IMG/VR virus record: IMGVR_UViG_2718217885_000006
DNA from: a virus
Lineage: Duplodnaviria > Heunggongvirae > Uroviricota > Caudoviricetes
Strand: one strand, 5' to 3'
DNA length: 45,337 bases
This document shows, in pieces, positions 4,603 through 5,381 of the stretch; within the stretch, counting starts at the first letter, position 1; each line of letters opens with the position of its first letter. The position numbers and the translations under genes were made by a program. The notes under the pieces are model-generated. The model was given only the letters and a program-made list of their open reading frames with translations. It had not been told where the DNA came from and made no database searches.

Positions 4603-4974
4603 TTATTGCGCTAATTCTTTTTCGGCAGCAGATTTTGCATATTCACATGCAAAATTCAGAATTTCGCTGCCAAGTGTTTTTGTTTCGTGATTACTGGACA
4701 TATGTAATACCTGTGTTGCATGCAATAAATGATAAACATTTACCGCAAATGAATCAGGCTCCAGACAAATGCCTTCATAATCATCTTGTTGTGAGGTTGT
4801 TTCTGTCATTGCTCCTGAAGTGCATGCGAGCCTGTTTTTGACAATTCTCTTTCCTCTAAACACGATATCGGCAACTTCTATTGCTTTTATAACCTCCGGG
4901 AGAAGATCCGGGTTTGCATAATCAAAGTCATCAACATGGAGAGCAGTTATGTTTTCGAACTTTTTCGTGCGCAA
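4603..4974 (-). CDS. hypothetical protein (123 aa), partner of HTH-XRE gene
   Basis: Track ORF begins at a TTG codon with GGAG SD 5 nt upstream; overlaps the 3' end of the HTH gene by 28 nt; no in-frame ATG near the start, so start is uncertain. Confidence 0.4.
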   Translation of the reverse strand: MRTKKFENITALHVDDFDYANPDLLPEVIKAIEVADIVFRGKRIVKNRLACTSGAMTETTSQQDDYEGICLEPDSFAVNVYHLLHATQVLHMSSNHETKTLGSEILNFACEYAKSAAEKELAQ

Positions 4975-5381
4975 GTATCTCCAGCTGTTGGTTTACCGGT
5001 TAACAGCCACATCGGGTCGCAACCAAGAACATTTGCCAGCGGGATAAGCATACTGATAGTTGGTTCATGCTCTCCGCTCTCCCACTGGATTATGATGTCT
5101 TCATCGAGATCGAGCAGCCTGGCGAGTTCGGCGGTTGTTAAGCCGCAGGATTCGCGTTGGGTGCGAAGACGGTTGTTGATTGCAGAATTTTTGTTCTGTA
5201 AAAGCATTGCTGACGATAGCTTTCTGGATATGCTATTTGTCATATCCCATGCCAGTCCTGCGCATGACTCGATATCGCCAGAGAGCGTAGCATCTGGCGT
5301 TGCTTTGGCTATTAGTGTAATGAGACTGCCGAGGTTTTTCAGTTCTTCAAGACAGTCAAGAGTTGTAGCTTTATTGATCAT
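4947..5381 (-). CDS. HTH-XRE family DNA-binding protein with N-terminal extension
   Basis: 144 aa; C-terminal half has a classical XRE helix-turn-helix (LTTAELARLLDLDEDIIIQWESGEHEPTISMLIPLANVLGCDPMWLL); GAGGT SD; first gene downstream of the cI-proximal operator-like region. Confidence 0.6.
   Translation of the reverse strand: MINKATTLDCLEELKNLGSLITLIAKATPDATLSGDIESCAGLAWDMTNSISRKLSSAMLLQNKNSAINNRLRTQRESCGLTTAELARLLDLDEDIIIQWESGEHEPTISMLIPLANVLGCDPMWLLTGKPTAGDTCARKSSKT

Follow-up and report, generated by a model that had tools for sequence, protein, structure and literature searches.

Two of the known systems closest to the locus analyzed here pair a regulator with a small protein. In the transcription factor-small open reading frame (TF-smORF) modules of linear plasmid-like phages, such as VqmA-Phi/Qtip, the two genes are divergent and lie between repA and telN, and the small protein, activated by the transcription factor, inactivates cI and influences the lysis-lysogeny switch (Silpe et al. 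2023, PMC10432266). SinR/SinI of Bacillus subtilis provides the structural precedent for a logic based on mixed complexes (PMC3163267). Our subject is a two-gene unit beside the cI repressor gene of IMG/VR virus record IMGVR_UViG_2718217885_000006, a member of the Caudoviricetes whose 45,337 nucleotides (nt) we refer to as the window. It consists of a gene for a 144-amino-acid (aa) XRE-fold protein with a helix-turn-helix (HTH) domain and, overlapping its end, a 123-aa open reading frame (ORF) that we call the partner. The original prediction, made from the sequence alone, saw in this pair either exclusion or defence cargo in the place of lambda rexAB or a toxin-antitoxin-like couple. Our analysis points instead to a conserved early-left pair, possibly regulatory, in which the partner appears to be an HTH-less paralogue of the HTH protein's own family.

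Results

The HTH gene (4947..5381, minus strand) begins with an ATG that has a Shine-Dalgarno GAGG upstream, and its product belongs to phrog_4739 (E 4.5e-83 over residues 1-139, model of 167 positions). As predicted, the HTH is C-terminal: Pfam HTH_3 covers residues 72-126 (E 6e-11), preceded by an N-terminal extension of ~68 aa. AlphaFold2 (predicted local distance difference test score, pLDDT, 80) models helices 2-27 and 31-78 as a hairpin and the HTH at 83-128, and we divide the protein into a helical-hairpin head of type A (residues 1-66; 5184..5381, minus strand) and a conserved domain, HTH1 (residues 67-130; 4992..5183, minus strand). The partner ORF (4603..4974, minus strand; 123 aa from an apparent TTG start) is likewise present as described. 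It is a member of phrog_5451, the family of phiP27 L08 (E 1.3e-78, positions 2-121 of 121), with a cross-match to phrog_4836 in the PHROG search. Its AlphaFold2 model (pLDDT 71) shows a beta-alpha-alpha-beta-beta arrangement at residues 10-47, a disordered acidic linker at 51-70 and a hairpin at 76-122 (helices 76-91 and 96-122), giving an alpha/beta domain (~residues 4-50; 4825..4965, minus strand) and a helical-hairpin domain (residues 71-123; 4606..4764, minus strand).

Across the family, HTH1 is nearly invariant, with ~90% nucleotide identity even between heteroimmune phages. The ~70-90 residues before it can be sorted into seven or more types with no alignment between them, and in ~75 loci each head type goes with its own cI type without a single exception (head A accompanies a cI C-terminus ending in ...VGVVVDARWDIF, head B one ending in ...ISSVPFNINRFG and head C one ending in ...IVSWPMTLHRFA), which places the left boundary of the immunity module at the head/HTH junction inside the HTH gene. 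By hhalign, type A is related only to type A2.

Both domains of the partner recur as N-terminal heads of this same HTH family. A profile search of 1.84 billion proteins found the alpha/beta domain fused directly to proteins with two HTH domains (P0167, P0169 and P0170) and the hairpin fused to others of that architecture (P0174, P0180, P0181 and P0185). The hairpin also aligns by hhalign with heads of types B (97.7%), D (96.6%) and C (88.9%), a homology seen for B-, C- and D-head regulators at loci L012, L013 and L097, and with a 63-aa ORF located after the regulator of phi467 (94%). Moreover, a B1 head used as a tblastn query matches the window at 4764-4576 (E 1e-9, 44% identity). At 4576-4605 this similarity runs past the partner's two stop codons into the linker of the regulator (AQ*Q*IFPE versus AQQKQSFPE); because the alignment continues beyond the stops, it suggests that the 3' end of the partner is a truncated regulator gene that has lost its HTH part. 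Given that both its domains form heads of the HTH family elsewhere, the partner appears by sequence to be an HTH-less paralogue of that family, assembled from two alternative heads. Since it is built from N-terminal domains of the family to which its neighbor belongs, the two genes are likely to be linked in evolution and in function.

Many members of the family carry two tandem HTH domains in 215-247 aa (P0032, P0114 and P0099), and single-HTH forms (compare window 4950-5183) end with the tail of a second HTH, LLTGKPTAGDTCA, a pattern pointing to internal deletions that arose repeatedly between the two HTH repeats.

The expectation that the two genes persist as a unit was borne out. In 79 of 80 related IMG/VR viral loci, which span three immunity types, the partner has the HTH gene as its immediate upstream neighbor, and the same arrangement extends to distant metagenomic relatives: an HTH gene of this family sits directly 5' of the partner on the divergent contigs L007, L008 and L009, and in the distant lineage L097 cI is followed by a 256-aa protein with a head and two HTH domains and then by a 121-aa partner. 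Owing to its presence in nearly all loci and across the three immunity types, the pair is a conserved unit that belongs to the fixed core content of this phage group rather than to its variable cargo. Sequence comparison indicates that the actual variable insert is a segment of 575-581 base pairs (bp) between the two genes in phiP27-type phages.

The partner itself is a real conserved gene: family members as divergent as 46% identity still measure 120-121 aa and begin with MKKFENIT, and the substitutions in their N-terminal half are conservative. The family is small, with 28 clusters at 90% identity, and the profile search of 1.84 billion proteins returned 43 relatives (representatives); the partner profile run against one genome per species gave no confirmed relative. 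A very common form of the HTH protein has 230 aa and occurs in 1,920 blocks of the assembly collection; 5 nt behind its gene lies one for a 66-aa hairpin-only protein. All 25 matching records in the phage collection are Escherichia coli phages, 19 of them named as converting phages for Shiga toxin (Stx) 1 or 2; the remaining 6 include the Stx2e phage phiP27.

In other prophages, runs of two to four extra head-like (helical hairpin) ORFs of 60-130 aa follow the regulator (L005 3576-3955; L097 5092-5468; L096 3337-4316; L007 2265-2651). Some are homologous to type G heads, which match a second class of downstream small ORFs at 95.8% by hhalign. The start of the early-left operon seems to be an expandable array of head-like modules.

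Database searches gave the partner no recognised toxin family or fold and no defence family. It had zero matches in Pfam, NCBIfam and PADLOC and none in a PDB sequence search at E up to 10, and a structure search with its model returned generic matches only. The neighboring small ORFs likewise had no matches in PADLOC, NCBIfam or Pfam. For the HTH protein, PADLOC produced only generic HTH-region matches (to the RmrA, CapH and PDC-M64 models), and NCBIfam scores stayed below cut-off for the DicA model PRK09706 (46.5 versus 101), couple_hipB (26.6 versus 71.65) and the MqsA family (24.6 versus 61.8). The window proteins had no match to the Pfam family of lambda CII. PF24250, flagged among precomputed matches, was not reproduced by a fresh Pfam scan.

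A second operator-like region after cI, which the original prediction had noted, was confirmed through sites common to both spacers flanking that gene. The 103-bp spacer between cI and the HTH gene (5382..5484, minus strand) resembles a leftward operator and promoter (oL/pL) and has repeats at 5386-5400, 5416-5430 and 5449-5465; the spacer between cI and the gene in the position of cro (6142..6252) resembles a rightward operator (oR), with operator-like repeats at 6165-6179 and 6188-6204. Throughout the 45-kb window, TTGATACTTTGGWTTCT occurs only at 5449 and 6188 (chance expectation 0) and TGATACNNNNGTWAC only at 5386, 5416, 5450 and 6165 (chance expectation 0.6), so that these repeats are confined to the two spacers. 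A promoter scan placed a sigma-70-like site, TTGCCA-17-TACCAT, on the minus strand at 5441..5413 inside the cI-HTH spacer, and the site is also kept in phiP27 and SE11. This is the sole minus-strand promoter-like site and lies upstream of the HTH gene; the scan saw none on the minus strand in the 128-nt spacer that precedes the partner gene. Two sister immunity types (B and C) present the order cI, strong intrinsic terminator (L013 3865-3890; L010 1265-1285), TTGACA-type promoter, palindrome and then the HTH gene. With operators and a promoter-like site standing between cI and the pair, the pair appears to head the early-left transcription unit, which is the position of lambda N and not that of rexAB. 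The proposal that the 144-aa protein might simply be the first early-left gene with a known function thus holds for its position and fails for its function.

The spacer also contains a palindrome (5386-5430, minus strand) with 15-nt arms and a 15-nt loop that covers the Shine-Dalgarno sequence of the HTH gene; as RNA it would fold with -20 kcal/mol (z -5.3). The predicted -10 of the pL-like promoter falls inside it, so that pL transcripts would lack its 5' arm and read-through from cI would carry the whole hairpin. In the sister immunity types the palindrome lies at or past the predicted transcription start and resembles an operator just as well. An RNA-level role and a DNA operator could equally account for it.

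The 28-nt overlap of the two ORFs (4947-4974), which had been read as translational coupling, turned out to have a different origin. Phage phiP27 has a 138-aa HTH gene, L10, ending in ...DTCA-TGA; after another 577 nt comes the 121-aa partner L08, equipped with an ATG (MKKFENIT...) and a Shine-Dalgarno sequence of its own. A compact form, in which the TGA stop overlaps the ATG start as ATGA, occurs at metagenomic locus L008 and in genomes L010, L011 and L012. The window differs from these compact relatives by a single base: at 4967 a derived T-to-C substitution on the minus strand (G on the plus strand) turns ATGA into ACGA and GCATGAAAAAG into GCACGAAAAAG. The native stop TGA of the HTH gene (4965-4967) thereby becomes CGA, which adds the tail RKSSKT, and the native start codon of the partner (4966-4968) becomes ACG, leaving the TTG at 4974 as the only in-frame start upstream of the conserved N-terminus. 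Because this one change destroyed both the stop of the first gene and the ATG of the second, the 144-aa form, the overlap and the apparent TTG start are together the scar of a point mutation.

How widespread is this junction? Across the 80 IMG/VR loci the partner starts with ATG in 78, with GTG in one and with ACG, the window type, in one, and the spacer between the genes measures 128 nt in ~47, ~575 nt in ~17, 182 nt in 4 and -4 nt in 8. A set of 5,426 complete E. coli genomes contains 15 with the compact arrangement, 4 of which have the window-identical ACG junction; three representatives of the other 11 (L010-L012) have ATG. With 309 contigs carrying the exact 144-aa protein and 92 on which the exact 123-aa ORF is called, the ACG mutant is not a sequencing oddity. 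A direct origin from phiP27 through a 581-bp deletion was considered and refined: deletion between the CATGAAAAA repeats, which stand at both ends of the extra phiP27 segment, gives the compact ATGA form only, and the point mutation lies on top of that arrangement.

The segment in question (phiP27, L002, 5000-5575; absent from the window at ~4960) resembles an inserted moron. Between its flanking repeats it carries a plus-strand promoter-like site, TTGAGA-17-GATAAT, an ORF of 69-75 aa (phrog_20080) and an unannotated 82-aa minus-strand ORF (phrog_23054).

The Prokaryotic Genome Annotation Pipeline (PGAP) calls only a 68-aa partner product (4603-4809), and this leaves the N-terminal alpha/beta domain systematically out of annotation. 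The same RefSeq/PGAP call recurs in L003, L004, L010 and L011 despite a conserved ATG for the 121-aa form.

Prophages in four complete E. coli genomes (GB089, 09-00049, OkiPb01715 and N96) match the region of the pair with 100% identity, phiP27 matches it with 97% identity, one indel aside, and the window is, as judged from these alignments, a phiP27-like E. coli prophage. Its minus strand carries, in order, the integrase gene (1-1314), the excisionase gene, a run of small early genes, the partner ORF, the HTH gene and cI. The latter (5485..6141, minus strand) encodes a LexA-like repressor (HTH_3 plus Peptidase_S24, by Pfam and the RefSeq annotation of the identical GB089 locus); its frame is open to 6216, with the PGAP start at 6141. 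Divergent from cI lies a small gene in the position of cro (6253..6480, plus strand; 75 aa, phrog_4749), beyond which are Rha-type genes. At 6482-7300 two long ORFs overlap almost fully on opposite strands (248 aa on the plus strand, 268 aa on the minus strand); RefSeq picks the former in GB089, and the phiP27 annotation picks the latter (L13).

Past the pair, the minus strand has two small conserved ORFs. One, of 48 aa (4411-4557), has no family match and is called in a 37-aa version in L009; the other, of 62 aa (4218-4406, phrog_340), weakly matches the C-terminal part of the anti-repressor family phrog_4792 (E 0.004). Further along the early-left operon, at 2451-3463 (minus strand), a 62-aa hydrophobic ORF precedes a 275-aa SPFH/Band-7 lipoprotein gene with a stop/start overlap of 4 nt, an arrangement that every related prophage seen has kept. 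Compared with the HTH gene and its partner, this membrane pair is the more plausible candidate for an exclusion or host-affecting function.

Discussion

We favor, with a probability of roughly 0.4, the view that the two genes form a conserved early-left regulatory pair: the HTH-less paralogue would enter mixed complexes with head-plus-HTH proteins and modulate them in this way. On this view, derepression of pL upon infection or induction would switch the pair on, and the cI transcript of the lysogen would not supply it. The heads would serve in oligomerisation or partner binding, and the partner would form mixed complexes that titrate the regulator as SinI titrates SinR. Such complexes may then tune early regulation and the lysis-lysogeny decision in the manner of truncated, dominant-negative regulators.

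Several observations count against this model. The type A head of the window and the hairpin of its own partner give no detectable homology (hhalign 0.19%), so that we dropped the idea of the partner as a paralogue of its own neighbor's head for the window and kept it for relatives with B, C and D heads. A BLASTP comparison between the two window proteins showed no similarity. One and the same hairpin subtype is found alongside heads of types A, B and C, and this lack of co-variation argues against a cognate SinI-like pairing between neighbors. The HTH domain is acidic, and, judging by known XRE-DNA contacts, canonical DNA binding by it is doubtful; it lacks the polar or basic residues typical of a recognition helix and may have no DNA-binding activity, which would make "regulator" a misnomer. 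The absence of co-variation and the acidic HTH both weaken the mechanistic step. In addition, mere proximity on the DNA may account for the association of head type with cI type. For the window's immunity type, a scan of the stretch from cI to the HTH gene detected no terminator, so that read-through expression of the pair in the lysogen is possible. A literature search found no study of these genes.

The acidity of the HTH bears directly on a second explanation, in which the 144-aa protein is an ordinary DNA-binding early regulator (a second repressor, a Cro- or CII-like protein, or an autoregulator of pL) and the partner an unrelated neighbor such as a Kil-, CIII- or Gam-like host-takeover protein. 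With the DNA-binding domains of P22 C2 and the 434 repressor as the closest structures to its clear XRE fold, with more distant family members that have ordinary-looking recognition helices and similarity to Phage_CI_repr, and with palindromes adjoining the promoter of the HTH gene in all immunity types, this account has several points in its favor, and it would also explain why partner hairpin and regulator head do not co-vary. We nevertheless consider it unlikely, since the HTH of the 144-aa protein has a net charge of -5 and an isoelectric point of 4.5, against charges of +6 for the window's cI, +5 for P22 C2 and +4 for 434, and has acidic residues (DED/DEE) at base-contacting positions, as seen where the P22 C2 recognition helix SNVAISQWE aligns with DEDIIIQWE. 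The names that GenBank depositors gave to relatives ("transcriptional regulator", "DicA" and "CII repressor") agree with an ordinary regulator but are only homology guesses, the DicA score lies far under its cut-off, and the recurrence of both partner domains as heads of one family would be unexpected from neighborhood alone. The same acidic HTH would suit an XRE-like domain that serves as a protein-binding module, with the HTH protein acting early as an anti-repressor or stabiliser on cI, Cro or a host factor, the head conferring immunity specificity, and the partner being a second effector with the same binding domains. The perfect association of head with cI and a recombination boundary exactly at the head/HTH junction fit this idea well; however, such linkage is expected anyway from a separation of ~100 bp, and similarity to known antirepressors is lacking in both structure and sequence, and we regard this alternative as quite unlikely.

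Exclusion cargo equivalent to rexAB, or a toxin-antitoxin-like unit with the HTH protein as antitoxin or regulator and the overlapping ORF as effector, is extremely unlikely in our estimation. Such systems come to mind because the two genes are small and run in the same direction and the first encodes an XRE HTH of the sort found in many antitoxins; the sub-threshold resemblance to HipB-type and MqsA-type HTHs, the generic PADLOC hits and the apparent lack of a terminator after cI also speak for them. The pair nevertheless lies beyond the oL-like operators instead of between cI and oL, it belongs to the core of the phage group, its overlap is a mutational scar, and a variant with a mutated start for the would-be effector and an altered would-be antitoxin has spread to at least 309 contigs. 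A separate issue, compatible with any functional reading because it concerns expression only, is whether the 123-aa ORF of the window is effectively dead or crippled, with the change from ATG to ACG stopping normal initiation and nothing, or only a 68-aa fragment, being made. The near-universal ATG of its relatives argues for this, as does the PGAP call of the short product, albeit one also made in relatives with ATG, and the TTG has only a GGAG at the short spacing of four nt. On the other hand, the frame shows no other damage, many contigs retain the variant, and some initiation at TTG 4974 is conceivable from that GGAG with ribosomes arriving from the HTH gene. We give even odds to the ORF being crippled outright; in this prophage the partner is probably either poorly made from the TTG or reduced to the 68-aa hairpin fragment.

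Returning to the model of an early-left regulatory pair, its implications extend beyond a single prophage. The HTH family lies directly beside the repressor in very many E. coli prophages, including those of the Stx type, and if the pair tunes the early decision or induction, it would influence the induction of Shiga-toxin phages and interactions between prophages. A very unlikely extension is that lambdoid prophages sharing a host use the swappable heads as a recognition code, each immunity type placing its own head on a common HTH part. The HTH-less 121-aa partner and the hairpin-only proteins of 60-70 aa would then serve as dominant-negative decoys that poison or cross-activate the early regulators of heteroimmune prophages or of superinfecting phages, which would amount to inter-prophage competition or exclusion in polylysogenic Stx E. 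coli. For annotation, the practical consequences are that the 121-aa gene is systematically under-called by PGAP and that the 144-aa and 123-aa forms of the window are products of one mutation.

Known systems share some features with the pair and lack others. Type II pairs with an XRE antitoxin (HigBA, HipBA and MqsRA) share the format of a small two-gene unit with one XRE HTH and some weak NCBIfam similarity, but the scores fall far under the cut-offs, a toxin fold is missing, the HTH is acidic and the context is fixed. Lambda rexAB is likewise on the strand of cI and immediately downstream of it, yet it lies between cI and oL and is made in the lysogen from pRM, whereas here operators and a promoter intervene and the pair is a conserved core without a defence-family signature. 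The better lambda counterpart is the early-left region (N, cIII, kil and gam): the HTH gene is the first gene past oL/pL, leftward of cI, small early genes follow, and the boundary of the immunity region falls inside that first gene; unlike lambda N, the 144-aa XRE-fold protein has no arginine-rich motif and no similarity to N. As in the TF-smORF modules, a phage transcription factor, often of the XRE type, stands beside a small orphan protein near the immunity region, although here the two genes run in one direction and overlap or adjoin, and the small protein is apparently a paralogue of regulator domains. SinR/SinI (and SlrR/SlrA) of B. subtilis resemble the pair in combining an XRE HTH with a helical hairpin in the regulator, as predicted here by AlphaFold2. 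The hairpin is, however, N-terminal here and C-terminal in SinR, the small protein has an extra alpha/beta domain, the hairpins show no sequence homology to SinI or SinR, the type A head of the window is not detectably related to the partner hairpin, and the setting is a prophage early-left operon. The PHROG families concerned (phrog_4739, phrog_4836, phrog_5451 and phrog_4587) are without an experimentally known function, the label "CII-like regulator" of phrog_4836 tracing back to homology-based annotation only. We read the pair as an unstudied variant of the theme in which a regulator is accompanied by a truncated paralogue.

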